Shown here piece by piece: positions 22,698-40,181 of a DNA stretch of 64,000 nucleotides. Made by a program: the position numbers and the translations under genes. The stretch is from positions 2,112,001 through 2,176,000 of the forward strand of contig CBDEGZ010000003.1 in the NCBI GenBank assembly GCA_965238175.1, read 5' to 3'. Below the pieces are notes generated by a model, which saw only the letters and a program-made list of their open reading frames with translations, was not told the DNA's origin and made no database searches. The DNA is from Gammaproteobacteria bacterium. GTDB taxonomy: Bacteria; Pseudomonadota; Gammaproteobacteria; CAJXQU01. How positions within the stretch are numbered: position 1 is the first letter of the stretch; each line of letters opens with the position of its first letter.

Positions 22698-23321
22698 ATG
22701 AATAAAAACAACCTTCAAACCCTAGAAACACGACAAATGGATCAAACTTTGATACTCGGATCTTCATCCATTTATAGAAAAGAATTACTACAACGTATAG
22801 GCCTTGATTTTGCGATTGATTCACCTGACATTGATGAAACAAGAAGAACCGGTGAAAGACCTGATGAATTAGTTAAACGACTTTCCTATGAAAAAGCAAA
22901 AGTCATTGCTGAAAGACATCCACAATCATTAATTATTGGTTCGGATCAAGTTGCCGTAAATGGCGATCAGATCTTAGGTAAACCCGGCAATAAACATATC
23001 GCCACGGAACAGCTAGAACAGGCGAGTGGCCGGTGCGTAACGTTTTTGACAGGCTTATGTCTCTTAAACGCGGACACCACCCAATTTCAGATCGATGTTG
23101 TCCAGTATAATGTTCATTTTCGACAACTAACTACTGATCAAATTTGCGCCTATTTGGAGAAGGAGCAACCTTTCAACTGCGCCGGCAGTTTTAAATCCGA
23201 AGGTTTGGGTGTTGCGTTATTTGAGAAAATGGAAGGCGGAGATCCAACCGCTTTAATTGGTCTCCCCCTTATTAGGCTTATTAGTATGCTGCGAAAAGAA
23301 GGGATCGAGGTTTTATCTTAA
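22698..23321 (+). CDS. maf: Maf family nucleotide pyrophosphatase (YceF)
   Basis: LILGSSSIYR, IIGSDQV, CAGSFKSEGLG. Confidence 0.93.
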   Translation: MNKNNLQTLETRQMDQTLILGSSSIYRKELLQRIGLDFAIDSPDIDETRRTGERPDELVKRLSYEKAKVIAERHPQSLIIGSDQVAVNGDQILGKPGNKHIATEQLEQASGRCVTFLTGLCLLNADTTQFQIDVVQYNVHFRQLTTDQICAYLEKEQPFNCAGSFKSEGLGVALFEKMEGGDPTALIGLPLIRLISMLRKEGIEVLS

Positions 23322-24278
23322 CCAGAACGAACCCTGCTGACTAAAAATTTGAGCGCTAGCTGAAGCACCCATCTGCTTCGCTAATTTCTCAAAGTATGGC
23401 TCATGTGTAGTGAAATCGACAATTTCTTCGGCACCAATAACCTCTCGCGCTACGTAGCTGCTACTTCCCAATGCGTCAACAAGACCAAGTTCGACACTTC
23501 TTTCACCTGTCCAGATTAAACCACTAAACGTATCTCTATCAGATTTTAGACGATTACCACGACCTTCTTTGACCGTTGTAATAAATTGATTATGTATATC
23601 GCCAAGCATATTTTTAACATGTTTCATTTCATCATCATTAACAGGTGTGAATGGATCCAAGAATCCTTTATGTTCACCAGCAGTAATTAAACGGCGTTCC
23701 ACACCCAGTTTTTCCATTGTGTCTACAAATCCAAAACCGTTCATAATGACGCCGATAGAGCCAACCAGGCTCGCTTTATCTGCATATATTTTGTCTGCAG
23801 CAGCAGCAATATAATATCCACCAGAGGCGCAAATATCGGTGATCACAGCATAGAGTGGAATGTCGGGATGTGCTTTTCGTAGTCGTTTTATCTCATCGTT
23901 TATATAGCCCGATTGCACAGGACTACCGCCGGGACTATTGATACGAAGAATAATGCCTTTAGTACCTTTATCTTCAAACGCACTTCGTAAGGCCGGGATG
24001 ATACGATCTGCACTTGCTTCCGCTTCTGGTGCAATAACACCTGTTAATTCAACTAAAGCTGTGTGAGATCCTCCTCCCTGATTACCTGATTTCCAATCTT
24101 TAGGGGCATAAAGCCAAATTATAGCAAATAGGTAAGCGAACATTAGAAACTTAAAGAAAAGCCCCCAACGTCGTGTTTTTTTCTGTTCTTCCAATGCGGA
24201 ATTGGCGAGTTTGACAATTACTTCTCTTTCCCAATTGTTATTAGATACGGGGCTAGATGAATTTGGTTTCTCTGACAT
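23313..24278 (-). CDS. sppA: S49 family peptidase (SppA-like)
   Basis: RINSPGGSPVQS, CASGGYY, VGSIGV. Confidence 0.9.
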   Translation of the reverse strand: MSEKPNSSSPVSNNNWEREVIVKLANSALEEQKKTRRWGLFFKFLMFAYLFAIIWLYAPKDWKSGNQGGGSHTALVELTGVIAPEAEASADRIIPALRSAFEDKGTKGIILRINSPGGSPVQSGYINDEIKRLRKAHPDIPLYAVITDICASGGYYIAAAADKIYADKASLVGSIGVIMNGFGFVDTMEKLGVERRLITAGEHKGFLDPFTPVNDDEMKHVKNMLGDIHNQFITTVKEGRGNRLKSDRDTFSGLIWTGERSVELGLVDALGSSSYVAREVIGAEEIVDFTTHEPYFEKLAKQMGASASAQIFSQQGSFWLR

Positions 24279-24287
24279 ATTTTTTCT

Positions 24288-25325
24288 CTAAAAAGTGATT
24301 GGAATATTATACAGTTCTGACAAGCCATTTAATGCTTTTACAGTCGCTGGATCAAGCGGCACTCCGTTCTTCTGATTGTATTCATATTGTTCCCAACGTG
24401 TTTCTCCAGGGATCATCACATTCCCTTCAACAGTACTAGAATCCTTAACCAATTCAACCAGTTGTTCCATACGCTCATAGTATGTATCTATATCTAAAAA
24501 ACGGCTGATATCTATGGCCATGAAAAAATGACCGTTTTTACCAGGTTCCTTATAATTGGTGAACATTGAATTCACTTCAGATGAGAACATTGCTCCGGTT
24601 AAGACGCTGCTCAGGATCTCAATCATTAAAGAAAGACCATAACCCTTTGCCCCACCAAAAGGCAGCAAAGCACCTTCATCAACCTTGTTTGGATCGGAAA
24701 TAGAATTTCCTTGTCTGTCAATCGCAATTCCTTCGGGGAGTTCTTTCCCCTGTTCAGCATATTTCATAACTTGAGCACCCGCTATCGCGGTCGTTGCCAT
24801 ATCCAACATCATACTTTTACCATTACGTCGCGGGGCACCAAAGGCAAAAGGATTTGTTCCAAAAACTGCTTTTATTCCCCCGTATGGTGCAACTTTTGAA
24901 ATTGAGTTACTGAGTGCGATACCAATCATTCCTTGCTCTGCTGCAAGTTGAACATAATATGCGCTCGTACCAAAATGATTACTATTTTTTACACCAACAA
25001 CACCAACCCCAAATTCTTTGGCCATATCAATTGATCTCATCATAGCTTTATGACCAACATAATGACCAATTCCCTGATCACCATTCATAACGGTAACAGC
25101 ACTGTTTTCATTACTGTATTCCGGCTCACAAGGACATTTGATCAAACCAAGTCCAATTCTTTTAGTATAGGCAGGTAATCGCCAGACACCATGTGTCGGT
25201 CGACCAATCTGATCACTCCAAATCAGCGCTTTAGCAAAAATTCGAGATTGTTCATCAGAAGCATTTACTGATCGTAAAACATTGCTGACAAATTCTTGAA
25301 GGGTTTTTAGAGATACTCTTTTCAA
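24288..25325 (-). CDS. Ldh_2 family oxidoreductase (module B)
   Basis: THGVWRLP, SNHFG, GTNPFAFGAP, LDMAT, GGAKGYGL. Confidence 0.9.
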   Translation of the reverse strand: MKRVSLKTLQEFVSNVLRSVNASDEQSRIFAKALIWSDQIGRPTHGVWRLPAYTKRIGLGLIKCPCEPEYSNENSAVTVMNGDQGIGHYVGHKAMMRSIDMAKEFGVGVVGVKNSNHFGTSAYYVQLAAEQGMIGIALSNSISKVAPYGGIKAVFGTNPFAFGAPRRNGKSMMLDMATTAIAGAQVMKYAEQGKELPEGIAIDRQGNSISDPNKVDEGALLPFGGAKGYGLSLMIEILSSVLTGAMFSSEVNSMFTNYKEPGKNGHFFMAIDISRFLDIDTYYERMEQLVELVKDSSTVEGNVMIPGETRWEQYEYNQKNGVPLDPATVKALNGLSELYNIPITF

Positions 25326-26542
25326 GATAAGAACTTTAATCTTTTAGAGACAGCACTTGAGAAATCAGCCCATATTTTTGCTAAAAAAGGTCCAGGATCA
25401 TCCAAACTAAAATAGGGAAAAACCAGAGCAGGACCTTTGATGCTTTTCAGCCATTCTATTGTTGTGATCTCACCTAAACGACGCAGTTCTATAAGTGATA
25501 AACAATCCAATAAGACCATCCAACGTCGAACACCAATTTTATAGCTAGTCTTTTCTGGCAAAGGTTTGCCTGTGAGATGACAATAAATAATATAAGCCAT
25601 ATCCAACCCACTTTTCGCAACAATGGCCTGAGCAGCAGAGAAACGTGGATTACATTCTATTATCTTCAGTTGACCATCGCGTACATCATGTTTGAATTCG
25701 ATATGCCCCATTCCGCGGAAACCAATACCTTTAAAAAAGCGTTGTCCCATTTCTGCTGTTTCCGGCAACCATTCCGTAACATGTAGGCAGCCATTACCAG
25801 AATTTTTCGGGTAGCGTCTTATTATCTTATGTGTATATTGAAAAAGCTCGTTACCCTCTTCGTCCATATAAGTGTAGTAGGCGCTCTGCAAATCATCAGC
25901 CCCAGGAATCATTTCCGTCACCATCAATTCAAGATCTTTATCTAAAAGACTTTTCACATTATTTCTAAGCTCTTCTTTATCATTTGCGGTGAGGTATTTT
26001 TTATTTTTGAAATGTTGCTGAAACAAATGTGAATGAAGTGGTTTGATCATTACAGGGAATAATATTGTGTTCTTGACTGTATCGACATCTTCAAGAACAT
26101 CTATATTGTAAAATGCCGGTGCCGGGCACCCAGCAGATTTGCCTAAGATTAATGTTTTCTGTTTGTTCAGCATTGCAAGATCAATTTCTGGAATATTATT
26201 ATCCATAATGAAATATTCTGTAAGTGCCTTTTTGTTGTGGGCAATATATTCGACAGCATGATCACTACATACCATAATCACACAACCTTTTAATTCAGGA
26301 TGTTTGTTTGATAATAATAACTCTTCCCAAAAGACATCAGGTTTGGTCTTTGCCGGGTATGGATAACTTTTTAGACAATAACGTGATTTGAAGGTGGGAG
26401 AATCAAACTGCGCTGAGATATAAACAGGGATTCCTCTACGGCCAAAGCTGCGCGCCAGAGAAATCGTATTTTCTTGTCCTCCAAGAATTAAGACGGGGAT
26501 GTTTTTATTTGTGTTCATAAAGTTAAGTTTTCTTACTTTCAC
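25322..26542 (-). CDS. ATP-grasp carboxylate-amine ligase, D-aspartate-ligase-like (module B)
   Basis: ARSFGRRGI, FPVMIKP, EMIPG, IEFKHDVRDG..IECNPR. Confidence 0.85.
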   Translation of the reverse strand: MKVRKLNFMNTNKNIPVLILGGQENTISLARSFGRRGIPVYISAQFDSPTFKSRYCLKSYPYPAKTKPDVFWEELLLSNKHPELKGCVIMVCSDHAVEYIAHNKKALTEYFIMDNNIPEIDLAMLNKQKTLILGKSAGCPAPAFYNIDVLEDVDTVKNTILFPVMIKPLHSHLFQQHFKNKKYLTANDKEELRNNVKSLLDKDLELMVTEMIPGADDLQSAYYTYMDEEGNELFQYTHKIIRRYPKNSGNGCLHVTEWLPETAEMGQRFFKGIGFRGMGHIEFKHDVRDGQLKIIECNPRFSAAQAIVAKSGLDMAYIIYCHLTGKPLPEKTSYKIGVRRWMVLLDCLSLIELRRLGEITTIEWLKSIKGPALVFPYFSLDDPGPFLAKIWADFSSAVSKRLKFLS

Positions 26543-27654
26543 TTTCTATTTGGACTATGAATTTGAGCTTCCTTATACTTAATTTGCTCGAAAACATATT
26601 CAATAATTATTGGTGCTATAGATATTCCTTGAGTGCTATTTGAGACTAACGCATGGTGATGAAGACCTGGTGTTGTATTAATTTCATTTACAACACAGCC
26701 GCTTTCATTTAGCGGGAGAGTACAATCAGTCATCATCAAATCTACACCAGAGAGCGTCACGTTTATTACTTTACTTATCTCTCTCCCGTAATCCACAATC
26801 GATGAGTGAATTTCATTCATAACGGAATGGTTTTCAAACCGAGAGCACTGATTCGTTGCTGTTTTAACTTCAACGCGCTCACCTTCGGCAGGTATATCAT
26901 TTAAACTAGATCCTCGATCTGATAACGTATATTTGCAATCAAGATCGACTGTCAGAGGTGATAATGCATATGGTACCGTACTATCCAACCTTGTACGATT
27001 TTCTTTATCAATTAAGCTTTCTATGGTGCTTGTGCCATCACCTGTTACACCAGGAGAATCCCTCTTTATCGCATCAATGAGCTCACCATTCAGATAAAGC
27101 AAACGATAATTTTCACCAGGCAATTCCTTTTCAATAATCAGCTTATTTGAAAAGGCAGATGCTTTATTAGAAGATTTATTTAACCTTGAAAAAGTATTCA
27201 CCTTTGTTGTGATCCCCCAACCTCCAGCACCTTCATTAGCTGGTTTTACAACGAAGTTTCCAGAATGCTTTGACATAAAACTTTTTGCTAATGATGTTGT
27301 TGACAAATCATACTCAAGATAATCAGAAACAAGGTGCCCTTGTTCGTTCAAAAGTTTATTAACCAAAGGCTTGTTACCTGCAATTCCTAAAGTGATATGA
27401 TCATCAAGCATTACCTCACCACGTCGCACAAAGGTCGTTTTACCATCACGATTAAGTCGGTAATAGCCATATCCTATAGAATCAATTTCAGCACCAATCT
27501 GATCTGCTAACGTCACCCAATAATTATCGAAGAATTTTTCTCTAGTTACTTCGAATTGATTTCTTAATTTCCATTCCTTGCTAAAAAGAACTGCATGCCC
27601 TCTTTCTAGACCTCTTCGACCGAGAAAGAATCCTTTCTTTATTTTTTCGATCAT
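26539..27654 (-). CDS. Single-domain ATP-grasp, CphA/GshAB-like (module B)
   Basis: VVKPA..GWGITT, GENYRLL, VTGDG, GVDLM, NEINTTPGL; no Mur-ligase domain. Confidence 0.8.
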   Translation of the reverse strand: MIEKIKKGFFLGRRGLERGHAVLFSKEWKLRNQFEVTREKFFDNYWVTLADQIGAEIDSIGYGYYRLNRDGKTTFVRRGEVMLDDHITLGIAGNKPLVNKLLNEQGHLVSDYLEYDLSTTSLAKSFMSKHSGNFVVKPANEGAGGWGITTKVNTFSRLNKSSNKASAFSNKLIIEKELPGENYRLLYLNGELIDAIKRDSPGVTGDGTSTIESLIDKENRTRLDSTVPYALSPLTVDLDCKYTLSDRGSSLNDIPAEGERVEVKTATNQCSRFENHSVMNEIHSSIVDYGREISKVINVTLSGVDLMMTDCTLPLNESGCVVNEINTTPGLHHHALVSNSTQGISIAPIIIEYVFEQIKYKEAQIHSPNRK

Positions 27655-27686
27655 TTATTAACTCCAAAACCCAACTATTGAATATA

Positions 27687-28406
27687 TTATTTTTTGTTGA
27701 TTACACAGCCCGTAGAATCAAGGTATTTATCCACCCATTGATTTGAAAACTTGCCTTTTTTCACATCAGCAACATAAGACTCAAGTGATTTTTTCTGCAA
27801 GTATAGTTTTGCAAGTGTGTCTTTAGCAAATTCCTGTCGTACAACAACAAGACCACTTTGATCACCAACAATAATATCGCCTGGGTTGACGACTATCCCA
27901 CCACAAGAGATAGGGTAATTAATCTCACCTGGCCCGCGGTGTAATGGGCCTATAGGTGTTTCACCTCGAGCAAAAACTGGCATGCCTACCTCGCGTACAT
28001 CAGGAACATCTCGGATCAAACCATCAATCACGAATCCAGCAATTCCTCGATGTTTTGCTTTACTGGAAATCAGATCACCAAGTACGGCATTGCTTTTTGA
28101 GCCTCCCGCATCTATGACGACGATATCACCAGGTTTAGCAATATCTAGTACCTTATGTACCATCAAGTTATCACCTGGAAACACTTTTACTGTGCAAACA
28201 GGACCACAAATACTTTCAGTATTCACCATATTACGAATGCCCGTATTAATTGCATACATCCGGTTTAATATGTCGGAAATATCGGGCGATTCAAACTGGC
28301 TATACTCTTCAATGATTTTTTTTGAAGGGCGTTTAAAATTCTCTCGAACTCGGAAGCCTGGCCCAGGATTCATTTCTGCGGATTTTGGTGTTGATTTAGC
28401 TGACAT
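27687..28406 (-). CDS. RraA-like / HMG-CHA aldolase family protein (module B)
   Basis: PGDNLMVH, GDLIS, DGLIRD, VNPGDIIVGD. Confidence 0.88.
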   Translation of the reverse strand: MSAKSTPKSAEMNPGPGFRVRENFKRPSKKIIEEYSQFESPDISDILNRMYAINTGIRNMVNTESICGPVCTVKVFPGDNLMVHKVLDIAKPGDIVVIDAGGSKSNAVLGDLISSKAKHRGIAGFVIDGLIRDVPDVREVGMPVFARGETPIGPLHRGPGEINYPISCGGIVVNPGDIIVGDQSGLVVVRQEFAKDTLAKLYLQKKSLESYVADVKKGKFSNQWVDKYLDSTGCVINKK

Positions 28407-28499
28407 AGTTAACCTCTTAATAAATCACTTATTGTTTTTTAGATAAAAGCGAGACCACCTTTTTAAGATAACGCTCGTTTTCCCCACTCATTTTTTGAA

Positions 28500-29561
28500 T
28501 TACTGGTTTCTTTCACCTTCTATTTTAGAATGAATGGCAGGTCCTCTACGTGGGCCAGTGTTGTAATGATCGGCAAATTCTTCAGTGAGCTCACGCGCTC
28601 CATCAAGATTTACCCATTGACGGAGTAACAGCCTTCTTTTCTTGGGATCTTCATGATCGATAAATGAATCACGATTATGAAAAACAGTATTGTTATTTAG
28701 GAAAGCAATATCACCGACCTCTAAATAAACATCAAAACGAATATCATCTCGCATAGCTAATTCAGCTATATAGTTAATGGCTTCTTTCTCAAGTGTAGTA
28801 AGAGGTTCAACTCCAGGTAATTCTTCTGCAGTTAGAATCGCTTTTTGGTTATAGCGGCAACTGAGTTGATCTTTGTAATAGCTAAATACAGGCACTCTGT
28901 GTTGAGTAATATCCTGATATGGACCAATGGGTCCGTTGCCACGGATATTGTAGTGAAAGCCAGTATATAGAGGTTCTAAATATTCTGGGTGTGTCTCGAC
29001 CAGTTCATTATAAATCGCCATCGTGCATGAAATATTATTCACCCCACCTTCTTTGGCCGGACGAACGCAGAGTAATACAACTAAATCTCCAGAGTCGCAA
29101 TGAGGAGTTAACTGTGCATTAGTTGTATAACCGCGCACCGCTATGTTGGTAGCATAATCACCACCACGATCGCATACATGATCGATTAACGTTCCCTTTG
29201 TATCTTGATTAAATTTCTCACCAAAATGTTTTGTAATACCGGCATAAAGTAACTCGATATCGTCAAGATCCAGGCCTTCGATAGGTGCACCACGCAATAC
29301 AGAAAAACCATAACCTTGATCGAGTTCAGTTTGCATTTGTGATAAAAGCAATCCAAATTGTGGAAGGGGGAAGTTTTCTTTTTTGATATTTTCGACGGTA
29401 CATTCATTCGCTTTTGCAATTTGCAGTGCAGCCAGAATTTCTTGTTGTTGAACAGTAGAAATTATATGTAACCATGACGTGCTTTCCTTCATGTCCTCGG
29501 CATACCAGATGGTGCCGCCGGTTACTTTTCCCTTTAATATTTCAGTTGGCATTATTTGCAA
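28500..29561 (-). CDS. TauD/TfdA family Fe(II)/2OG dioxygenase
   Basis: PHCD, LLCVRPAKEGG, NNNTVFHNR, RLLLRQW. Confidence 0.88.
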   Translation of the reverse strand: MQIMPTEILKGKVTGGTIWYAEDMKESTSWLHIISTVQQQEILAALQIAKANECTVENIKKENFPLPQFGLLLSQMQTELDQGYGFSVLRGAPIEGLDLDDIELLYAGITKHFGEKFNQDTKGTLIDHVCDRGGDYATNIAVRGYTTNAQLTPHCDSGDLVVLLCVRPAKEGGVNNISCTMAIYNELVETHPEYLEPLYTGFHYNIRGNGPIGPYQDITQHRVPVFSYYKDQLSCRYNQKAILTAEELPGVEPLTTLEKEAINYIAELAMRDDIRFDVYLEVGDIAFLNNNTVFHNRDSFIDHEDPKKRRLLLRQWVNLDGARELTEEFADHYNTGPRRGPAIHSKIEGERNQ

Positions 29562-29744
29562 TTCTCCTTATAACTAAAGTTTAGAACGATTTCCTCCAGA
29601 TATACTTTTTATAGGGGAAATTTACAGATGATTCAGGGTAAGGTCGAGAACTTAACTGGAGGATCTAGTTAAATATCGTGGCTAACAACATGAAAACTAA
29701 TGAAAACCAATCTCGAGAAAGTCAACATCTACTTAAAACTCACA

Positions 29745-30800
29745 TTAGTCCAAAGTTGTAGGAGCACAAACATCAAGCCCCTTAAGCTGAGTCAAGCGTC
29801 TTATCATAGGTACATATTGAAGACACTCAGAGCGTGACACACCTAAACTGACAATAAGTTCTTTGACTGATTTATTTACATCAGCTTTTTTAATAGCCTC
29901 TAGCTCTAATTCAGAAATGGTGAATTCTTTTTCACCACCAACATAAACCTGGATCACTTCTTTCCAATAAAGTCGCGTGTAATGACGACTGATTCTCTCC
30001 AATTTTGGAGAAACTTTAACGATGTGTTCTAAAAATTGATCATCGTTTGAAGCTAACAATGATTGGGATGTCTCCTGTTGTGTAACAGTCGAAGGATCTT
30101 CACCAATAGGGTCAAGATCCATTGCATTAAATTTAAGATATAGGACACTTGTATTCGCAGGTAACTCACGTTCGTGATAGATAGAGTTTCCACGAAACAG
30201 CAGAACATCGCCTGGCTCCGCATAAATTCTGACCGGCTCAATACCTTGCAATATATTTTCAGGAAGATCTTCTTCATCAAGGCTAGCCCGGTATAAAGCG
30301 GTAGAATTTAAAGGGTTAACATCCAACAAATTTTCAGGCCATAAAACGACATGAGAACCCTCTGGGATCACAAGTGGCAAGCCAACCGTTAACTCAGCTG
30401 CGACGCGATCTTTATGTGGTGGAACATGATTTTTTGCTTCTGATTCGTAAACTTTAATATGCCGTTCACAAAGCTTGAATTTTTCCATCGGCAGCCTCGC
30501 GGTTTTAGCCATTGTTTCAAAACCACTGCCGTAAAAGTCCCATTCTTCAAAATCGTATAAATATTGACGCTTTTTGCCCTTAAAGTGCCAGTTTTCCAAA
30601 TCTTTACTGTTTTCTTCTTGCTTCGCCGCCTGGGCTTTTGCAACCTCTAAAAAGTCAAGATCAATACCATTTTTTACTAATACATAGCCATTTTTGACAT
30701 ACTTATCGACATAATCTTGAGGATTGTAAGTAAAAATATTTTTCTTACTTTTGAAATATGGGGATCTTACTTCTAATGCTCCTGATACGATACTTTCCAA
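29745..30800 (-). CDS. Putative Fe(II)/2OG oxygenase-fold protein with C-terminal extension
   Basis: PHKD..ELTV and GDVLLFRG..IYHER give an HxD..H triad. Confidence 0.65.
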   Translation of the reverse strand: MESIVSGALEVRSPYFKSKKNIFTYNPQDYVDKYVKNGYVLVKNGIDLDFLEVAKAQAAKQEENSKDLENWHFKGKKRQYLYDFEEWDFYGSGFETMAKTARLPMEKFKLCERHIKVYESEAKNHVPPHKDRVAAELTVGLPLVIPEGSHVVLWPENLLDVNPLNSTALYRASLDEEDLPENILQGIEPVRIYAEPGDVLLFRGNSIYHERELPANTSVLYLKFNAMDLDPIGEDPSTVTQQETSQSLLASNDDQFLEHIVKVSPKLERISRHYTRLYWKEVIQVYVGGEKEFTISELELEAIKKADVNKSVKELIVSLGVSRSECLQYVPMIRRLTQLKGLDVCAPTTLD

Positions 30801-31017
30801 TTGTCTTCACCTCATTCCATTGATATTTCAGCAATAATAATACTTGAACTCTATTTGCACTTTATAGCGGCACTAATAATAGATAATTGAGTCGTCGACA
30901 CACAAACACTCAAGTGATTATTATCTTAGATCAATTTTGTGAACAAGTTGACATTCTTTTTCGACACGAGGGTAACTGTAATCTAAACGTAACAATAGAA
31001 GCTCTTAAGTAATTAAT

Positions 31018-32067
31018 CTACCAATCTATTTCCACGTCCAACTGAGTAGAGAGTTCTTTCAGTGCCGATATGGTTTCGTGATCAATATTAATACCTTTTT
31101 TACAGCTGGTTTTGTACTGATCCCAGCGTGCTTCACCAGGAAATAGTACTTTTTTATGATCAAAACCTTCGGCAGAATCTTTTACTAACGTCAATAATTC
31201 TTCTATTCGCAGATGATAGTCTTCGATAGAAATGAGTTTTCCTATATCGATAGTGATAAAGAAGTGTCCATTATCACCACTCTCTTCAAAGTTTTTATAC
31301 ATGGATTTAACGCCGTGAGAAAAGCCCGCCCCCATCAATACTCCTGACAAGATCTCAACCATAAGAGAAATACCAAATCCTTTTGCCCCACCAAAAGGTA
31401 ACAAGGATCCACTAGCCACCTTATTTGGATCTGTAATTGGATTACCGTTTTTATCAATTGCAATGCCCTCTTCTAACTGAATACCCTGCTCACCACTTTT
31501 CGTGATCGAAGAACCCGCACTGGAGGCTGTGGCCATATCCAATAGAATATGTTCACCATTTTTTCTGGGTGCGCCAAATGCAAAAGGATTCGTTCCTAAT
31601 ACCGATTTTACCCCACCATAGGCTGCAACTTTAGGAAAGGAATTGCTCATGACTAACCCAATCATTCCTGACTGACATGCCTGATTGATATAATAAGAAC
31701 CTGCTCCAAAAAAATTGCTGTTGTTAACTCCCACAACCCCAACCCCCATTTGTTGTGCGATTTTTATTGCTTTTTCCATTGCAAGATAGGCAATGTAATG
31801 GCCTGAGCCTTCGTCTGCATTCATAACAGAAACTGAGGCTGTGGATTGAATAGTCTTAGGAGAGCAAGGAGATTTTATCAATCCTTTTTTGAAACGTTTA
31901 GTCAATAAAGGCAGTCGCCAGACACCTTGGTTATGTCGCCCAATTTGATCACACCAAACTAAAACCTGACTTAATATCTTTGCTTCTTTCACATCACAAT
32001 CACTTGCTGTAAGTAGTTGGGTTGATATGTCTAAGAGTTCATTAGCAGTCAAAACTTGAACACTCAT
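31018..32067 (-). CDS. Ldh_2 family oxidoreductase (module A)
   Basis: GVWRLP, GTNPFAFGAP, LDMAT, GGAKGFG; paralog of 24288-25325. Confidence 0.88.
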   Translation of the reverse strand: MSVQVLTANELLDISTQLLTASDCDVKEAKILSQVLVWCDQIGRHNQGVWRLPLLTKRFKKGLIKSPCSPKTIQSTASVSVMNADEGSGHYIAYLAMEKAIKIAQQMGVGVVGVNNSNFFGAGSYYINQACQSGMIGLVMSNSFPKVAAYGGVKSVLGTNPFAFGAPRKNGEHILLDMATASSAGSSITKSGEQGIQLEEGIAIDKNGNPITDPNKVASGSLLPFGGAKGFGISLMVEILSGVLMGAGFSHGVKSMYKNFEESGDNGHFFITIDIGKLISIEDYHLRIEELLTLVKDSAEGFDHKKVLFPGEARWDQYKTSCKKGINIDHETISALKELSTQLDVEIDW

Positions 32068-32072
32068 TTTTG

Positions 32073-33317
32073 TTAAATACCTACGCCTCTTTGTTGATTT
32101 GCTGATTTTCTACGATGTATTTTTTCACAGATAGCTTTTTTCCATTCGTATAGTGAAGGCGCTGGATCATCCCATTTAAAGAACGGAAAAGTTTGTCTTT
32201 TAAGAAGGCTTCTGAACCAGCCAAATAGTGATATCAAATCTTTCCCTTTCAGCTCACGATAAGCGGCTAAATCTGGCAATAGGTACCAGTAGGCAAGATC
32301 TTTCCGATTTCCGATATCTGGCAAAGGCAATTCTACTAAATGATTATAAATTGCATGTGCAACATCTGCCCCACTACTCACCAATAAGGGATGTCCACCA
32401 GTAAATCGCGTATTACATTCTATGATTTTGTACTTGTTATCTCGAGTATCATATTTAAATTCGATGTTGCCGTTGCCTCGGAAATCTATCCCTTGAAAAA
32501 ACTTTTTGCCCTGTTCTGCTGTTTCAGGCAACCATTCAGAATGATGGTAGCAAGCAGCGCCAGAATTCATTGGGAAACGTCTGATAACTTTTTTCGTGTA
32601 GTGGTATAACGACTTACCTTCACTGTCATGATAAGTATAGTAGCTTGACAATAATGAATCAGGACCGGGGATAAGTTCCGAGATCATAAATTTCAATTGT
32701 TTCTCAAAAACACGTGTTGCATGTGTAACCAGCTCGTTAAAACCTTCTGCTCGCAGATATTTCTTTCCGTCAAACTGACGTTGAAACAAGTGTGAATGAA
32801 TCGGTTTTATGATCACAGGAAAAATAATTTCATTTTCTATTTTCATTACATCTTCGAGTGAATCCACATTCCAAAAGTTAGGAGCCGCAACACCGACTGA
32901 ATTTGCGAGTTTCAAAGTCGCTTGTTTGTCGAGTAGTAATGCATGTATTTTTGGATCGTAATCATCAAGAATGTAGTCTTGTTCTAGTAGTGTTCTATTC
33001 TCCGCAAGGAATTCAATAGCATCATCATTACAGGCAAAAACAACACTGCCTTTAAGATTTACATCTTGTCTATTCAATAATAATTCAGTCCAAAAATCCC
33101 TTTGAGTCATGGACACAGGAACGGGATATCGATCATTACAAAAACGTGATCTAAAAGCGTGCGCATCTTCACTGGCTGAGACGTTCACTACAATTCCTTT
33201 TTTGCTCAAACTTCGGACAATTGCCAGCGTATTTTCTCGCCCACCTAACAGGAGAAGTGGTGGTTTATTATTTCTATCTTTTTGTTGGTTATTCCCATCG
33301 TTACTCATTTGGATCAA
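32073..33317 (-). CDS. ATP-grasp carboxylate-amine ligase, D-aspartate-ligase-like (module A)
   Basis: FPVIIKP, ELIPG, IEFKYDTRD..IECNTR. Confidence 0.85.
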   Translation of the reverse strand: MIQMSNDGNNQQKDRNNKPPLLLLGGRENTLAIVRSLSKKGIVVNVSASEDAHAFRSRFCNDRYPVPVSMTQRDFWTELLLNRQDVNLKGSVVFACNDDAIEFLAENRTLLEQDYILDDYDPKIHALLLDKQATLKLANSVGVAAPNFWNVDSLEDVMKIENEIIFPVIIKPIHSHLFQRQFDGKKYLRAEGFNELVTHATRVFEKQLKFMISELIPGPDSLLSSYYTYHDSEGKSLYHYTKKVIRRFPMNSGAACYHHSEWLPETAEQGKKFFQGIDFRGNGNIEFKYDTRDNKYKIIECNTRFTGGHPLLVSSGADVAHAIYNHLVELPLPDIGNRKDLAYWYLLPDLAAYRELKGKDLISLFGWFRSLLKRQTFPFFKWDDPAPSLYEWKKAICEKIHRRKSANQQRGVGI

Positions 33318-34398
33318 TTCGCCTTTTTTGTTGGAAAATATAATTGATTATTAGTTTGCCAACAGGAGTTATTTTATCCTTTTCAAAAACAAGATCATGA
33401 TGATGTAAACCTGGAGTGGTATTCAGTTCATTAATGACACCACCACATTGAACAAGCGGCATAGTAATATCAGGAGTAATCAAGTCTACTCCCACCAGTT
33501 TTAGATCCAAAACCTGAATTAATTCCGCACCCAAATTAACTATCGAAGAATGTACTTGATCTTTAACAATATGATTCTCATTCGACGAATTTTCATTACA
33601 CACCAATTTAAGTGTTGCGGTTCTACCGCTTTCAAGAACACTGGACAACGAAAGATCTTGCTTTGCAAGGTGTGTATGCATCTCATCTGAGATAGTGATA
33701 GGACTTAGTGCAGTAACTAGAGCAGAACTGATTCTATTATCATTTTCCGACTTAATAAGCTGGCTGATCGTACTTGTTCCATTTCCAGTAACAACAGGTT
33801 TATCACGTCTGATGGCATCAATAAATTTGCCATCAAGATACAGTAGACGATACGAATCACCTTTTACCTGCTCTTCGATCAAAAGGTCATTCTTATAAGT
33901 GGAGGCAAAAACGGACGCAGCAAGTAATTCTTTTTTTGATCTGATTTCAGTGGTGATTCCATTACCAGCACCAGATCCGCTAGCCGGTTTTACAACTGCA
34001 GGCACATCAAGTCCATCAAGAAAAGTCTCTGCCTCATCAATACTTTCTAGTGAATATCTAAGATATCGAGGACCTTGATAACCTACTTCAGACAATAGCT
34101 TGTGAATTAATGGTTTGTTACCTGCAATATTTAAGCTGAGGTGATCATCGAGCATAACTCTTGACTGCCTTACATATGTGGTTAGATCACCTTTCCTAAT
34201 CCGATAATACCCTTGCCCAATATCTTCGAGCGTAGCATCAAGCGAACCTGCTACGCTTTCCCAGTAAAGCTGGTAGTAGTCCTTTCGAAGTTTGGTAAAG
34301 AATGCATACTCTTTACGCTTACCAGACGACAGGATCTTTTTTACCTTGGCAAAAACACATCTAACCCGCATTCTTTTTGCAGAAAGGCTGTTGATCAT
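33301..34398 (-). CDS. Single-domain ATP-grasp, CphA/GshAB-like (module A)
   Basis: VVKPA..GNGITT, GDSYRLL, GVDLI, NELNTTPGLHHH. Confidence 0.8.
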   Translation of the reverse strand: MINSLSAKRMRVRCVFAKVKKILSSGKRKEYAFFTKLRKDYYQLYWESVAGSLDATLEDIGQGYYRIRKGDLTTYVRQSRVMLDDHLSLNIAGNKPLIHKLLSEVGYQGPRYLRYSLESIDEAETFLDGLDVPAVVKPASGSGAGNGITTEIRSKKELLAASVFASTYKNDLLIEEQVKGDSYRLLYLDGKFIDAIRRDKPVVTGNGTSTISQLIKSENDNRISSALVTALSPITISDEMHTHLAKQDLSLSSVLESGRTATLKLVCNENSSNENHIVKDQVHSSIVNLGAELIQVLDLKLVGVDLITPDITMPLVQCGGVINELNTTPGLHHHDLVFEKDKITPVGKLIINYIFQQKRRIDPNE

Positions 34399-34410
34399 CT
34401 TTGACTAACC

Positions 34411-35121
34411 TTAACCGTCAATAACACATTCAGATTCACTGAGAGATCGATCTACCCATTCGTTTGAAAATTCTCCACGCTTCACATCAGCAACATACTT
34501 AGCCAAAGAGTCTCTTTGAGTATAGGCTCTTTCTAGCACATCTTCTGCAAATTCTTTTTGGACAACAACAACACCGTCTTTGTCTCCCATGATTATGTCG
34601 CCAGGGTTGACAACAATACCTCCGCAACAAACAGGATAATTAATTTCACCAGGACCGCGATGAAGAGGACCGATTGGGGTAATTCCTCTTGCATACACTG
34701 GCATAGCAATTTCTTGTATTCCTGGAACATCACGAATCAAACCATCAACAATAAATGCCGCAACACCTTTATGCTTCGCTTTTTGTGATACAAGATCACC
34801 AAGCACGGCATTCATCGGTGAAGCTCCTGCATCGACAACAATAATATCGCCAGGCTGCGCTATATCCAAGGCTTTATGAACCATCAGATTATCACCCGGG
34901 AAAACTTTAACTGTTAAAGCCGGTCCAACGATTGAGTCTGTATTAATCCGGTTTTTAATTTCCCAATGCATTGTATACAGTCGATTCATCAAATCAGAAA
35001 TGTCGGGTGTCTCAAATTGTCCGAATTGTTTCACCAAATCAGGATCGGGGCGAGTTATTGTTTTAAGCACTCGGTAACCTGGTCCTGGATTGAGTTCTGA
35101 AGACTTGGGTTTATTAGCCAT
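34411..35121 (-). CDS. RraA-like / HMG-CHA aldolase family protein (module A)
   Basis: PGDNLMVHK, DGLIRD, VNPGDIIMGD. Confidence 0.88.
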   Translation of the reverse strand: MANKPKSSELNPGPGYRVLKTITRPDPDLVKQFGQFETPDISDLMNRLYTMHWEIKNRINTDSIVGPALTVKVFPGDNLMVHKALDIAQPGDIIVVDAGASPMNAVLGDLVSQKAKHKGVAAFIVDGLIRDVPGIQEIAMPVYARGITPIGPLHRGPGEINYPVCCGGIVVNPGDIIMGDKDGVVVVQKEFAEDVLERAYTQRDSLAKYVADVKRGEFSNEWVDRSLSESECVIDG

Positions 35122-35576: not shown

Positions 35577-36473
35577 ATGATCAAAGAATATCTCAAAGGG
35601 TTTATTGGAATAACTCTTCTGCTGGCTTCAGTTAACGCAAGTGCATTGTTGTTTTGGAGTGATCGACAAACACACATGGAAGGAACTGCTAAAATCCTTT
35701 TTGACTATGTTTCGTTAGATCCTACCACTTACACAAATGGTAATGGGCGAGCATTTAAAGGTGAATATGGCAGTGCAGGAGCAGGTACCTTTTACGCAAA
35801 TGGGATAACGTTTGTTAACAGCGGCATCACCATGAATATAAGCACTAACGCACAAACACAAGCACCGATTGACTCCAGATACCAATCAGATAGTTCAGGT
35901 GTTAAAACAGCCAATGCTAATTTAGCTGCATCCGTTCATGGATTAATTGCTGGGCATGGGACCTCTTCAGACAATTTGATTAACCAAACAAACGTGCAAG
36001 CACTTATTGATACAGGAGATATTCCAAACACAGTAAATGCAGCTGATTTTGCTGGGACCGAGGATCCTTTCGATATTTCTACTACTTTCGATATTTCATT
36101 TGATCATAATGTTGTTTTGAATACAGTTTTTTTCGATGTGATCAGTCACGGTGGATCTGACAATACAGATCCTCTATTTAATCAGGCACCGACATTTGAT
36201 ATTACTGGAGGTTCTAATAGCCTTAATTTAACCGGCTTGAATACAGTCACTGCAACAGAAAACGGAAGTACTAATATTTCAGGTGGTGCTCTTTTCCTTG
36301 CAGGCGAGTTGTATACCATCACTGTAAATTCTACTGGCTCATTGAATAGCCTTGTTGAATTTCAAGCCTGGGACGTTACAGCCGTTCCACTTCCTGCTAC
36401 TGCTTGGTTTTTGTTAGGTGGTCTAGCGAGCTTGTTTGGGTTTGGTCGTAAAAAAACGCAAGTACAAGCTTAA
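35577..36473 (+). CDS. VPLPA-CTERM (PEP-CTERM-like) exosortase-targeted surface protein
   Basis: Signal peptide, T/S/N/G-rich body, C-terminus AVPLPATAWFLLGGLASLFGFGRKK. Confidence 0.92.
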   Translation: MIKEYLKGFIGITLLLASVNASALLFWSDRQTHMEGTAKILFDYVSLDPTTYTNGNGRAFKGEYGSAGAGTFYANGITFVNSGITMNISTNAQTQAPIDSRYQSDSSGVKTANANLAASVHGLIAGHGTSSDNLINQTNVQALIDTGDIPNTVNAADFAGTEDPFDISTTFDISFDHNVVLNTVFFDVISHGGSDNTDPLFNQAPTFDITGGSNSLNLTGLNTVTATENGSTNISGGALFLAGELYTITVNSTGSLNSLVEFQAWDVTAVPLPATAWFLLGGLASLFGFGRKKTQVQA

Positions 36474-36493
36474 ATCTGTAACCCCTATTTTTC

Positions 36494-36573: not shown

Positions 36574-37671
36574 TTAGTTGGCTAATTTAGCTGGGATCAA
36601 ATTCTTCAAGATCCCCTTCACCAGATGTTTTTTATTCTCAGTAACACTCCCTAATAAAATAATCACGATGGAGACAGAGCAAAATAGTAGTAAATGTCTG
36701 ACAGGATCATCTCTTTCAAACCCGTAGACAGCATTAAAAAATTGTAACAAAGGATAATGAAATAGATATATTGAAAAAGTCAGACCTGCCCAGTACCTTA
36801 TTGGACGCTCAAAGTTTTTTAACAATTTATCAAACCTATGCGAAATAGCTTTTAATCCAACAAAATTCATTGAGATCAATAAACCGTATAGATAGCTGAT
36901 CAAAAACTCATCTGAATGCCATAGTTTCTGATCGACAAATTCTGCTCCTAATAGATCTTTAGTCATCGTTAGCAACTGATGATCAAGCCCAATTACTTTA
37001 GTTATTAAATAAATAACAGTCGGGAATAAAAAAAGAATCCAGCCTGTTCCTTCGGATAAAGTCTGTGATTGGTTGTACTTATAAACCCAAACACCCATTA
37101 ACCATATGGGTAATAAGATCATGATCTTCGGACCGGCAACCAATAATGTTAGCAAGATCAAAATCAGGCGAACATATCCTTTAAAGTAAAATGAGGCCGC
37201 AAACAATACATAATACCAAAACTCATAACTCAAAGACCAAAAAGGACTGTTTGTAAATGGCCTGATACCATAGAACCAAAGCTCGTTGACAAAAAACAAA
37301 TTAGCTAATATTCGTAATACAGGCTGTTTATCAGCATACCACCAACCATCATATGAGACGGGATCAATCGAGCTTCCCCACTTGTCTACAATAACGGTTA
37401 AGATCAAGGCCGGTATAACGACAGAGTAGAGTCTGGAAAGACGGTTCAGTGCAAAGTTGGTAAAATCCTTATCTCGAGTGTTTGCTACATAGGCAATAAC
37501 ATAGCCAGACAAAACAAAAAATACGATGACAGCATCGCTGCCTATATGTAATTCACGAAAGCCAGAATAAGTGCCTCCTGTAAGACGTGTAAAGGCAAAG
37601 TGAGAAATAAAAACTGTTAAAGCAGCACTAAATCGAATGAGATCCAAATATAAAGAGAACGTTTTGTTCAT
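36574..37671 (-). CDS. Acyltransferase family 3 (OafA-like) membrane protein
   Basis: LDLIRF..H, VFFVLSGYVI, WSLSYEFWYY, SIYLFHYP. Confidence 0.92.
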   Translation of the reverse strand: MNKTFSLYLDLIRFSAALTVFISHFAFTRLTGGTYSGFRELHIGSDAVIVFFVLSGYVIAYVANTRDKDFTNFALNRLSRLYSVVIPALILTVIVDKWGSSIDPVSYDGWWYADKQPVLRILANLFFVNELWFYGIRPFTNSPFWSLSYEFWYYVLFAASFYFKGYVRLILILLTLLVAGPKIMILLPIWLMGVWVYKYNQSQTLSEGTGWILFLFPTVIYLITKVIGLDHQLLTMTKDLLGAEFVDQKLWHSDEFLISYLYGLLISMNFVGLKAISHRFDKLLKNFERPIRYWAGLTFSIYLFHYPLLQFFNAVYGFERDDPVRHLLLFCSVSIVIILLGSVTENKKHLVKGILKNLIPAKLAN

Positions 37672-37674
37672 AGT

Positions 37675-39144
37675 TCAGACACCACTACTTTGCAATCTCT
37701 CCTGGAGAACCTTTCTTGCTCTCTCATCAGTTATTAGTAGTAGGCCACCATATAGTACGATTCCAACGATTATCTTGACTACTATTTCAATAAGGAACCC
37801 TTCTATTTCAATACTATCGAGAACAAAATACATAAGAATAGATAAACCAATAAATTTCGTAGCGGCGAGAAATGGAAAATCAATAATCAGAAGTTTTCGA
37901 CTATAAAAAGTTTCTAAAATGATCATCAATAAATAGGATAACAAAGTTGCTATAGCTGCACCTTCAATTCCATAAAGTGGAATAAATACAATATTCAACA
38001 CGACATTTACAAGCGCCGCTGAAAAAGTTATCCACATCAAAGCCGAAGATTTTTTAATAAAAATACCCGCGCCTAACATCGAATGTGTACCGTAAATCAT
38101 TTGGCCGGCAATAACATATGGGATAACAACACCACTTTCTATATATTTCCCACCAGTTATCAAAATAATCAAATCTGGGCCAACAACGGCCACACCAGCA
38201 ATCACAGGAAAACACATGATCAAATAAAAATATAAAGATTTTTCAATAAAGTTTTTAGTTGCAGCGACACCTTTATCAGCCCAAATTTGGAAATACATAG
38301 GTCGAATTGCTTGGAATAGAGAATCCACCATCATTATTTTTATGTATCCACAAAGTGCGTAACCGGCTGCATAAACCCCCAGCGATTCTGACCCCATTTT
38401 CCAATTAATAATATAGCGATCACCCAAGCTAAAGATAACAAACACCAATTCATTGCCAAGCAATGGCAACCCATAGGCCAGCATTTCTTTCGTCATTTTA
38501 GGCGAGAAACTATGCGGCGATAATTGTATATTTCGCATAGCATAAAACGCGAGAATTGAAACCAATGTTACGTGGACAAGTACTCGGGCAATAAAAACTC
38601 CTTCAAGGGAGCGGGTAATAAAATAAAGGGTTATTACAACCGCGAGTAGAATTCCGTAGCACTCAGAAACTGTAAAAAGACTAAGCCACCCACTTTGTTG
38701 TTTAGCCTGCAAAAACCCAGTTAACATACTAAGAATTACATGGAAAAAAATAACAACTCCGGTAAGCAAAAATAGATTTCTTAGTTTTGGCTCACCCCAA
38801 GTTGTATCTGGTAAGAAATAGACGATCAACATCCAAAGGATCGTAATGATCAGACCTGTCCCAACCATGCTAGTAACAATGGTTGAATAGTAGGTTTTAA
38901 GATCCCAACGACCTGTGCCTTCCTTGTCTTTTATATCGGAGTAATATCTGACGATTGAAAATTGCAGGCCACACTTCCCAAACGCAGCGATAAAGGTGAT
39001 CGTTGTCATAACGAGAGTGAGAAGTCCGTAATCACTCACGGATAGCATTCTTGTCAAGATTGGGAAAGATATTAACCCAGCAAGCGTCCCTGCCAATCCG
39101 GCCAGAGAGTACCGGGACGCATGTACCAAAAGATTTCTAAGCAT
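37675..39144 (-). CDS. Polysaccharide / oligosaccharide flippase (Wzx, MOP family)
   Basis: Polytopic; PILTRMLSVSDYG, DRYII, LNIVFIPLYGIEGAAIATL. Confidence 0.9.
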   Translation of the reverse strand: MLRNLLVHASRYSLAGLAGTLAGLISFPILTRMLSVSDYGLLTLVMTTITFIAAFGKCGLQFSIVRYYSDIKDKEGTGRWDLKTYYSTIVTSMVGTGLIITILWMLIVYFLPDTTWGEPKLRNLFLLTGVVIFFHVILSMLTGFLQAKQQSGWLSLFTVSECYGILLAVVITLYFITRSLEGVFIARVLVHVTLVSILAFYAMRNIQLSPHSFSPKMTKEMLAYGLPLLGNELVFVIFSLGDRYIINWKMGSESLGVYAAGYALCGYIKIMMVDSLFQAIRPMYFQIWADKGVAATKNFIEKSLYFYLIMCFPVIAGVAVVGPDLIILITGGKYIESGVVIPYVIAGQMIYGTHSMLGAGIFIKKSSALMWITFSAALVNVVLNIVFIPLYGIEGAAIATLLSYLLMIILETFYSRKLLIIDFPFLAATKFIGLSILMYFVLDSIEIEGFLIEIVVKIIVGIVLYGGLLLITDERARKVLQERLQSSGV

Positions 39145-39167: not shown

Positions 39168-40181
39168 TTATTTTATGATCTGCTGTAATTCTTTTGGTAA
39201 TGGTGCATCAATAGAAATTCGATCCATATCAGCAAGCTGAAAGCTTAAATGACTTGCATGCAGAAACAAACGTCTTAGTCCTTTTTTTTTCAATTTTTTA
39301 TTAAATTCATCATCCCCATACTTCTCATCCAAAGCAATTGGCATGCCCATGTGGGCACAATGGGCACGAATTTGATGTGTTCGGCCAGTATGTAACGTTA
39401 CTTTTAATAATGATGTGTCAGGAAATCGTTTTACCAATTCAAACTCTGTCAACGCTGACTTGCCATTCTCATCAACACGAACAACTCTTTCTCCGCCAGA
39501 AAGACTATTTTTAACTAAGGGTGCATCGACAATTTGTTTTCCACCTTTCCACTTGCCCTTGACCAACGCAAGGTACTGTTTATCCATCTTGTTCGTTTTT
39601 ATTAATTTATTCATTTGCCGTAAAACGGCAGGTTTTTTTACTAGAATCAAACAACCCGAGGTGGCTCGATCAAGCCTATGGGCAAGTTCGATATAATTAC
39701 TCTTGAATTCAGGCATGCTTCGAAACGCTTCGATTATCCCAAAATCACATCCAGTACCGGCATGAACAGGAATACCTGAAGGTTTGTTGAGGATCAAAAA
39801 AGCATCATCTTCAAAAAGGATACTTGCTTTGAGTTGATCAATGACTCGATGAGGAATTTTTAATTCGAAATTTTCCTCAAGATAAACTGGAGGAAGACGC
39901 AAATTATCATCTGGTTGCAAACGATAATTAGGTTTTATCCTTTTTTTATTAATTCGAACCTCACCCTTACGTAACATTTTATAAATGCGACCTTTGGGTA
40001 TAGTCTTAAAAAAATGACTTAGAAAATTGTCTATGCGACGACCAGCATGATCATTATCAATCGTAATATATTGTACTGTCTGGTAACTTACTGAGTCTAA
40101 ATTTGCAGAATCTACTGACGAAGTTATTATAGTCTTTTGCGAAGGCTTGTTGCTGATAGGATCCAAGCTTGCTATTATCAC
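39168..40181 (-). CDS. rluC: 23S rRNA pseudouridine synthase RluC
   Basis: RIDNFL S4 domain, HRLDRATSG, TGRTHQIR; divergent from rne; start uncertain. Confidence 0.93.
   Translation of the reverse strand: MIIASLDPISNKPSQKTIITSSVDSANLDSVSYQTVQYITIDNDHAGRRIDNFLSHFFKTIPKGRIYKMLRKGEVRINKKRIKPNYRLQPDDNLRLPPVYLEENFELKIPHRVIDQLKASILFEDDAFLILNKPSGIPVHAGTGCDFGIIEAFRSMPEFKSNYIELAHRLDRATSGCLILVKKPAVLRQMNKLIKTNKMDKQYLALVKGKWKGGKQIVDAPLVKNSLSGGERVVRVDENGKSALTEFELVKRFPDTSLLKVTLHTGRTHQIRAHCAHMGMPIALDEKYGDDEFNKKLKKKGLRRLFLHASHLSFQLADMDRISIDAPLPKELQQIIK

Follow-up and report, generated by a model that had tools for sequence, protein, structure and literature searches.

The closest concept to the genes described here is that of TupA-like, WemR-type amidoligases, ATP-grasp ligases that, in an excerpt of PMC13419641, are placed within surface-polysaccharide loci and predicted to decorate the polymer with amino acids. 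Here we analyse a stretch of 64,000 nucleotides (hereafter the window) from a Gammaproteobacteria bacterium, positions 2,112,001 to 2,176,000 of contig CBDEGZ010000003.1 in assembly GCA_965238175.1, in which each of two paralogous gene modules encodes a pair of ligases from other ATP-grasp lineages together with an oxygenase, an Ldh_2 protein and an aldolase. Described enzymes resemble the single components of this cassette: CphA1 and CphA2, N-acetylglutaminylglutamine synthetase and GshF have an ATP-grasp domain homologous to the first ligase; D-aspartate ligase, the PRK06849-PRK12767 “carbamoyl-phosphate-synthase-like” ATP-grasps and the L-amino-acid ligase BL00235 are weak matches to the second; the HMG/CHA aldolase-oxaloacetate decarboxylases (LigK/ProA; PDB 3noj) are alike in fold to the RraA-like protein; ComC, AllD, the type-2 malate/lactate dehydrogenases and DpkA share the full-length Ldh_2 fold; and FrbJ, the FR-900098 hydroxylase, is a TauD-type relative of one oxygenase. 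The gene set as a whole (RraA-like protein, two ATP-grasp ligases, Ldh_2 protein and Fe(II)/2-oxoglutarate (Fe/2OG) oxygenase) has no description in the full-text literature searched, in agreement with the initial annotation of this DNA, which had recognised no characterised pathway. Because the cassette recurs inside polysaccharide gene clusters of many phyla, its most likely role is to furnish a surface polysaccharide with an acidic side chain.

Two runs of genes, 35121-31018 (module A) and 28406-24288 (module B), share the order RraA-like protein, CphA-like ATP-grasp ligase, second ATP-grasp ligase and Ldh_2 protein, on which the open reading frame (ORF) check, Pfam and NCBIfam agree (Table 1). 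All ten ORFs in 24288-35121 lie on the minus strand, are open and full length, and agree in position with the initial annotation. Gene by gene the two runs are paralogous, far above chance: 149 of 231 residues are identical between the RraA-like proteins (65%, E 5e-123), 144 of 336 between the CphA-like ligases (43%, E 6e-96), 176 of 382 between the second ligases (46%, E 1e-127) and 175 of 341 between the Ldh_2 proteins (51%, E 3e-134). Given these values the duplication is real, diverged and unbroken, as the initial annotation had described it.

All four ligases give weak matches to Pfam ATP-grasp models. The CphA-like ligases are homologous to the G domain of cyanophycin synthetase, matching PDB entries of CphA1 at E 1e-21 to 1e-24 and 7ta5 at E 2.1e-30, but at 365 and 371 residues they do not have the three-domain architecture of CphA1 (N, G and Mur-ligase-like M domains, ∼870 residues), and NCBIfam cyanophycin-synthetase models are matched at positions ∼202-476 only, with 139-167 bits against 850-877. 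They also match the ATP-grasp parts of N-acetylglutaminylglutamine synthetase (E 3e-32 and 2e-34) and of GshF; compared with all of these enzymes, however, they carry no N, M, GNAT or GshA domain and reach 100-167 bits against 425-877. By analogy, the CphA-like ligase would activate a carboxylate as an acyl phosphate and add an amino acid to it. N-acetylglutaminylglutamine synthetase and GshF are makers of free peptides, a resemblance that favours a different product, namely a free small pseudo-peptide in which a hydroxy acid is joined to one or two amino acids and hydroxylated, for use as an osmolyte, metal chelator or signal. We consider this, the main alternative, unlikely, though far from negligible, and return to it with the gene neighbourhoods.

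The second ligases stay far below the cut-offs of the PRK06849/PRK12767-type ATP-grasps (at most 46 bits against 218-406) and, in contrast to D-aspartate ligase, these ATP-grasps and BL00235, form a family with its own strongly conserved motifs. Their alignment has 58 invariant columns, including K127, K167, E282, E296, N298 and R300, which we take to be the ATP/Mg-binding lysines and the E-x-N-x-R motif of the ATP-grasp superfamily, to which these residues assign the proteins. D-aspartate ligase adds an acid to the amine of a nucleotide-sugar peptide. Relatives of the second ligase number 270 in a protein collection at E ≤ 0.001, and their names are no more specific than “carboxylate--amine ligase” or “D-aspartate ligase”.

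No member of the cassette is better conserved than the RraA-like protein, with the motifs PGDN(L/M)M, GD and DGxxRD kept in 56-59 of 59 homologues. That of module A matches the CHA aldolase structure 3noj (E 1.2e-32) with the GD and RD motifs aligned, and PF03737 together with the GD...DGxxRD metal and catalytic motifs places both copies among the class II aldolases. They differ from LigK/ProA in falling below the equivalog cut-offs (132.5 and 126.1 bits against 304.5 for TIGR02798; 153.5 and 137.4 against 179 for NF006731), so that LigK/PcmE orthology does not hold; both instead pass the uncharacterised subfamily NF004850, and there is no aromatic-degradation context. An ORF of 154 residues on the plus strand (27982-28446), antisense to the module B RraA gene, is seen in nine loci; rather than being a gene, it most likely arises from conservation of the gene opposite it.

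Both Ldh_2 copies show the family fold over their full length (PF02615) and are closest to ComC, the type-2 malate/lactate dehydrogenases and AllD, but compared with the characterised enzymes ComC, AllD and DpkA they lie below all equivalog cut-offs. His44 and His116 of AllD are described, in an excerpt of PMC3527362, as catalytic and invariant in the Ldh_2 family. Alignment with AllD, ComC and others puts Gln47 and Phe119 at these positions in module A, while both histidines are present in module B; the alignment shows the residues that contact NAD(P) (T, P, D and K) conserved in the module A protein. The Q/F state is shared by the orthologue of the congeneric genome G002 (74% identical), by that of G003 and by loci of Thiotrichaceae and related Gammaproteobacteria. 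Of the 57 Ldh_2 proteins linked to cassettes, 48 have one or both histidines replaced (H/F 22, Q/H 8, Q/F 7, F/F 5, Y/F 2, F/W 2 and Q/Y 2, against H/H 9). From these histidine states it follows that most cassette Ldh_2 proteins are not conventional family members and that the two window modules differ in this respect.

No sequence relationship links the two oxygenases, whose best local match (E 0.003) spans 21 residues. The module B enzyme is a TauD-family protein by PF02668 (90 bits, cut-off 27), with H154, D156, H295 and R310 invariant in seven of seven sequences, and it matches FrbJ over its whole length with the HxD...H...R set; FrbJ differs in context, as a Pfam scan found no phosphonate genes in the cluster, a scan that did not extend to a PEP-mutase search. 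Similarity to FrbJ and ComC could hint at a phosphonate or sulfonate connection. The module A enzyme (Oxy, 29745-30800) has no Pfam or NCBIfam match. The initial annotation had called it an HxD..H oxygenase, a call borne out by H129-x-D131...H209, invariant in 19 of 19 aligned homologues (as is K223), and by an AlphaFold model (pLDDT 86.9) whose Foldseek matches in the PDB are all Fe/2OG oxygenases with the double-stranded beta-helix. Different oxygenase families, along with Ldh_2 proteins that have or do not have the catalytic histidines, fit different chemistry in the two modules, as would be expected if, as first proposed, they handle different substrates.

The ribosomal-protein hydroxylases YcfD, MINA53 and NO66 are among the top-ranked Foldseek matches of Oxy, a ranking that could point to modification of a protein or peptide, for example of the VPLPA-CTERM protein encoded beside module A, by residue hydroxylation and addition of amino acids or acyl groups in the manner of RimK, tubulin-tyrosine-ligase-type and graspetide ATP-grasps. 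Such a role would suit the action of CphA-type ligases on peptide C-termini, the extra C-terminal domain of gammaproteobacterial Oxy proteins and the position of the VPLPA-CTERM gene beside module A in the window genome, G002 and G003. Full-length TM scores against the ribosomal oxygenases are low, however (0.23-0.34), and the catalytic domain is better fitted by the small-molecule hydroxylases SnoK/N, proline hydroxylase, GriE and KanJ; genomes with module B and most other loci have no such protein beside the cassette, and the aldolase and Ldh_2 protein would be left without an obvious role. We therefore regard protein modification as improbable. The extension itself, the C-terminal ∼110 residues of Oxy (29745-30080), is folded in the gammaproteobacterial proteins and missing from alphaproteobacterial homologues; it may be a peptide- or ligand-binding domain. 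A weak atlas lead for Oxy (score 0.88) consists of oxygenase-PqqD fusions.

Comparison of the same locus in the window genome (G000) and six congeners (G001-G006, uncultured Gammaproteobacteria) revealed that the modules occupy a swap locus between rluC and sppA. The site is without a cassette in G004 and G006 (rluC-flippase-sppA), holds module B only in G001 and G005 (rluC-flippase-TauD-RraA-Cph-AG-Ldh-sppA, where AG is ATP-grasp), holds module A only in G002 (rluC-flippase-acyltransferase-VPLPA protein-RraA-Cph-AG-AG-Ldh-Oxy-sppA) and, in part, in G003, and has both modules in tandem in the window genome. The flippase is a resident backbone gene, present in all seven genomes. The acyltransferase gene accompanies module A in G002 and G003 and is absent from G001 and G005, which carry module B alone, and a VPLPA-CTERM homologue adjoins module A in G002 and G003. 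Since congeners carry single modules at the site, with Oxy after the Ldh_2 gene in G002 and TauD at the head of module B in G001 and G005, each functional unit is a module of five genes that includes an oxygenase of its own. The initial annotation was correct in placing two Fe/2OG oxygenases between the runs, but these do not form a bracketed pair apart from them: each module has one of the two as its terminal gene.

The comparison does not sustain a local duplication as the origin of the pair. Module B proteins resemble those of a Pseudohongiellaceae metagenome-assembled genome (MAG) locus (64, 74, 59, 56 and 61% identical) more closely than they do their module A paralogues. A tree of 87 second ligases gives full support to a clade of seven that unites the module B copy with G001, G005 and Pseudohongiellaceae MAGs, and likewise to a separate clade of four that unites the module A copy with G002 and G003. 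Because the clades are separate and module B is nearer the MAG proteins, the tandem pair is best described as two old lineages juxtaposed at one variable site, and recent tandem duplication is rejected on the congener loci, the MAG identities and the tree. A third and more divergent pair of CphA-like and ATP-grasp genes, ∼42% identical to both window copies, lies in G003 (L015, G003:C122:1-4041), with one in-frame TAA in its second ligase.

The cassette extends well beyond the genus. Searching species-representative genomes with a profile of twelve second-ligase relatives, followed by tblastn confirmation, yielded 318 stretches; the best 80 were analysed, with cassette genes called by tblastn using the window proteins. 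In these best 80 of 318 loci the RraA-like (R), CphA-like (C), second ATP-grasp (A) and Ldh_2 (L) genes are colinear in 40 and all four families are present in 45, so that conservation of the quartet elsewhere, one of the points raised at the outset, is established. Oxy (O) is nearby in 22 and TauD (T) in six. Common layouts are RCAL (14 loci), ORCAL (8), TRCAL (6), OARCAL (5) and RCAL with an oppositely oriented Oxy gene after it (5). Reduced forms occur as well: ten loci, mainly from Calditrichia and KSB1, have CA only, and in seven from Vicinamibacterales A stands with L and C inverted; several of the remaining loci are short contigs. Most carriers of the full set belong to the Alpha- and Gammaproteobacteria, with one Acidobacteriota genome; the orders or classes given in record titles include Rhodobacterales (8), Sphingomonadales (6), Hyphomicrobiales (4), Thiotrichales (4) and unclassified Gammaproteobacteria (8). 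Among cultured bacteria, Roseovarius confluentis SAG6, Henriciella mobilis M65, Croceibacterium soli, Maritimibacter harenae DP07, Rhodovulum iodosum and Profundibacterium mesophilum are carriers. A search for fused forms of the second ligase returned a single case, a protein of 809 residues whose doubled score suggests a tandem ligase-ligase fusion.

The most constant members of the cassette are the two ATP-consuming ligases, the CphA-like ligase standing alongside the anchor (second) ligase in 69 of 81 sources (the 80 loci and the window). This is difficult to reconcile with a catabolic cassette, in which a hydroxylated amino or organic acid would be degraded by hydroxylation, oxidation and aldol cleavage. 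For three components the characterised relatives are indeed catabolic (CHA/HMG aldolase, ureidoglycolate dehydrogenase and TauD), but every equivalog score for a catabolic enzyme falls below its cut-off, neither an uptake system nor a catabolic regulator is recurrent among the annotated neighbour clusters, and the context is biosynthetic, leaving catabolism a very remote prospect.

To describe that context we clustered 2974 ORFs of at least 110 residues from the 80 loci and the window, removed clusters overlapping core genes on the opposite strand and ran Pfam on representatives of the recurrent neighbour clusters only. Recurrent neighbours are overwhelmingly polysaccharide-assembly genes: two GT4 glycosyltransferase families (18 loci each), a Wzc-like kinase/co-polymerase (11), UDP-GlcNAc 2-epimerase (10), Poly_export (8 and 5), Bac_transf (8), MOP flippases (6 and 5), UDP-sugar dehydrogenase, GlmS-like and FemAB-type GNAT proteins (7 each), and polysaccharide deacetylase, MBOAT, Wzy_C and GT2 (6 each). 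Wzx/Wzy-type polysaccharide clusters harbour the cassette in many other taxa. At least one recurrent polysaccharide-type gene is present in 42 of the 55 loci of 15 kb or more, a number that, like the 13 loci left over, is approximate because only recurrent gene clusters were annotated.

The commonest accessory gene encodes a GINT1_N protein of ∼540 residues, found in 21 of the 80 loci by clustering and 22 by tblastn, usually directly downstream of the Ldh_2 gene. Its model (pLDDT 80.9) has an alpha/beta N-terminal half and a five-bladed beta-propeller, and in a fold search the propeller matches the carbohydrate enzymes GH117, GH43, GH62 and GH130 (E 5e-10 to 1e-7, TMt 0.44-0.55); a sequence-profile search of the PDB gave only an insignificant GH32 match (E 0.13), and an atlas look-up led no further than its own family. 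The sole GINT1_N copy of the window genome is ∼740 kb away in an XrtA/PEP-CTERM polysaccharide locus with GT4 genes, Wzy_C, a deacetylase, a chain-length determinant and an XrtA-associated ATPase. The window cassettes themselves adjoin the MOP flippase, the Acyl_transf_3 protein and the VPLPA-CTERM protein.

Two further places in the window genome deserve mention alongside these polysaccharide genes. A second polysaccharide-type locus (L019:3155-10878; G000:C3, ∼255-263 kb) has a Wzc-like gene fused to a transposase HTH, a GT4, a deacetylase, a family-less protein of 380 residues and a further PRK06849-like ATP-grasp that shares 25-27% identity with the cassette ligases. An MbnB/TglH/ChrH-family gene and a DUF2063/NGO1945 gene, a pairing typical of a peptide-modification system, adjoin each other beside the XrtA polysaccharide locus (L101:491-2099; G000:C3, ∼2.905 Mb).

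This gene context bears directly on the choice, left open by the initial annotation, between a surface glycan and a short peptide as destination, and it favours the glycan: the same 42 long loci are flanked by glycosyltransferases, Wzc/Wza, priming transferases, flippases or the propeller protein, the membrane partners that can be named are MOP/Polysacc_synt flippases, typical small-molecule exporters and regulators are not among the recurrent neighbours, and module A is accompanied by Acyl_transf_3 and an exosortase-sorted protein. On the free pseudo-peptide reading, a neighbouring polytopic membrane protein would be the exporter and adjacency to polysaccharide genes would reflect shared regulation or chance. 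A self-contained cassette that is mobile as a unit would suit that reading, and part of the neighbourhood data does so too. Thirteen of the 55 long loci have no recurrent polysaccharide gene; a Pfam scan of six of these found housekeeping or unrelated neighbours only. In Marinobacter suaedae an R-A-L trio adjoins a Mem_trans transporter and a LysR regulator. At six loci the Ldh_2 gene is followed by one for a family-less protein with 11 hydrophobic segments, a potential exporter that fits either flipping or small-molecule export.

The bare loci, the Marinobacter trio and the 11-segment protein all weigh against a role of the cassette in polysaccharide decoration, and so do several other observations. 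The flippase is present in the cassette-free genomes G004 and G006 and GINT1_N in seven of seven genus genomes, cassette or not, so that neither depends on the cassette. Pfam found no glycosyltransferase in the window island, which is not a Wzx/Wzy-type cluster: it has a flippase and an acyltransferase only, and the glycosyltransferase, Wzy_C, chain-length and XrtA genes lie ∼740 kb off. None of the four window ligases matches PF14305 (TupA-like) at E ≤ 0.001, and PF14397 is hit below threshold by one relative only, which places the cassette ligases outside the known polysaccharide-associated ATP-grasp families. Counts over loci are not independent, since the loci are related to one another. 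Finally, all of the chemistry is inference, substrate and product included.

Weighing these points, the best-supported reading, which we hold to be about as likely as not, is that each cassette builds a hydroxy-acyl or aminoacyl acidic substituent and attaches it to an exopolysaccharide repeat unit before flipping. The chemical steps, their order, the substrates and the acceptor are drawn from known activities of the enzyme families. The RraA-like metal-dependent aldolase/decarboxylase would supply a 2-oxo acid, such as the 4-hydroxy-2-oxo acid that pyruvate would form with a carbonyl partner, which the Ldh_2 protein would reduce with NAD(P)H in canonical fashion in module B; the module A protein may have an altered chemistry, or bind only. 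The two ATP-grasp ligases would then form two successive amide bonds via acyl phosphates, one joining a carboxylate to the amine of a sugar or amino acid and the CphA-like ligase adding an amino acid to a free carboxylate, and the Fe/2OG oxygenase would hydroxylate the building block or the finished side chain. Attachment to a sugar of the repeat unit would take place at the cytoplasmic face, after which the adjacent flippase could move the unit outward for polymerisation and export by the XrtA/PEP-CTERM machinery encoded elsewhere in the genome. Both modules in one genome would provide two different decorations. In a more far-reaching version, which we offer tentatively and hold to be more doubtful, this is a widespread route by which an aldol-built branched hydroxy-diacid is grafted onto exopolysaccharide repeat units via two ATP-grasp amide bonds; interchangeable cassettes at one site would give serotype-like diversity, and the Ldh_2 protein of most lineages would have traded its catalytic histidines for a new role, such as acid-independent imine (opine-type) reduction or substrate presentation.

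The features of the variable site and its flanks are collected in Table 1. The VPLPA-CTERM protein has, on inspection of its sequence, a signal peptide and a C-terminal VPLPA motif followed by a transmembrane segment and an RKK tail; the best NCBIfam match of the flippase is HfsF, below cut-off. Promoter-like sites in 23000-40500 are at chance level (48, with 52.6 expected), and of the 26 terminator-like sites in this interval (12.2 in shuffles) none convincingly marks a module boundary.

Table 1. Genes of the variable site and its conserved flanks in the window.
Feature	Coordinates	Strand	Basis and remarks
SppA/SohB-type S49 peptidase	23313..24278	-	Pfam and NCBIfam; synteny, conserved right flank of variable site
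Module B Ldh_2 dehydrogenase	24288..25325	-	PF02615 E 5.3e-113; both catalytic histidines kept (H/H)
Module B second ATP-grasp ligase	25322..26542	-	406 aa; weak PRK06849/PRK12767/ATPgrasp_Ter matches
Module B CphA-G-domain-like ATP-grasp ligase	26539..27654	-	371 aa; Pfam, NCBIfam, paralogy to module A copy
Module B RraA-like aldolase/decarboxylase	27687..28406	-	PF03737 E 2.8e-49; NF004850 236.9 bits, cut-off 231
Module B TauD-family Fe(II)/2OG dioxygenase, FrbJ-like	28500..29561	-	PF02668 E 3.2e-25; PDB 5eqn (FrbJ) E 8.6e-50
Module A Fe(II)/2-oxoglutarate dioxygenase (Oxy)	29745..30800	-	351 aa; no Pfam model; HxD...H and fold model
Module A Ldh_2-fold protein	31018..32067	-	PF02615 E 6.5e-97; Gln47 and Phe119 replace both family histidines
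Module A second ATP-grasp ligase (PRK06849/PRK12767-like)	32073..33317	-	414 aa; invariant ATP-grasp residues
Module A single-domain ATP-grasp ligase, cyanophycin synthetase G-domain relative	33301..34398	-	365 aa; 7ta5 E 2.1e-30
Module A RraA-like class II aldolase/decarboxylase	34411..35121	-	PF03737 E 1.4e-47; NF004850 244.9 bits, cut-off 231
Secreted protein with VPLPA-CTERM (exosortase-type) sorting tail	35577..36473	+	Divergent from module A; TIGR03370 24.8 bits, cut-off 25.35
Acyl_transf_3 membrane acyltransferase	36574..37671	-	PF01757 E 1.2e-25; accompanies module A
MOP-family (Polysacc_synt) flippase	37675..39144	-	PF01943/PF13440 E 2.4e-26; 11 hydrophobic segments
rluC-like pseudouridine synthase	39168..40181	-	Pfam; synteny, conserved left flank of variable site

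Elsewhere in the window, adjacent transposase ORFs of 344 residues (42967-44001 and 44160-45194; HTH_29 and rve_3, identical Pfam scores) lie next to rne, and a transposase-sized ORF of the same layout occurs at a distant place in the genome (L019:14882-15916); together they look like a multi-copy IS element. Phage remnants occupy 1-3690 and 5935-10186, one set with a Mu-type portal, a Mu F-like protein and a D12 adenine methyltransferase, along with a filamentous-phage-like pair made up of a Zot-family assembly ATPase (6410-7441) and a Rep protein (9368-10186); the GC fraction drops to 0.30 at 4001-6000. From 46000 to 62800 runs a series of about fifteen small same-strand ORFs (124-273 residues), mostly without a Pfam family and including DUF4279, TPR, ankyrin and two methyltransferase genes, closed by a tyrosine recombinase (63098-63925); this is possibly an integrated island.

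Side-chain decorations of exopolysaccharides set their charge, metal and water binding, recognition by phages and predators, and material properties, and to our knowledge the enzymes that install non-sugar acids and amino acids on them are mostly unknown. The cassette described here is compact and portable and is found in several phyla, including cultured marine Alphaproteobacteria, so that its function is directly testable. It is a source of new amide-forming and C-C-forming enzymes, and it flags a large group of Ldh_2 proteins without the residues thought essential for the family.

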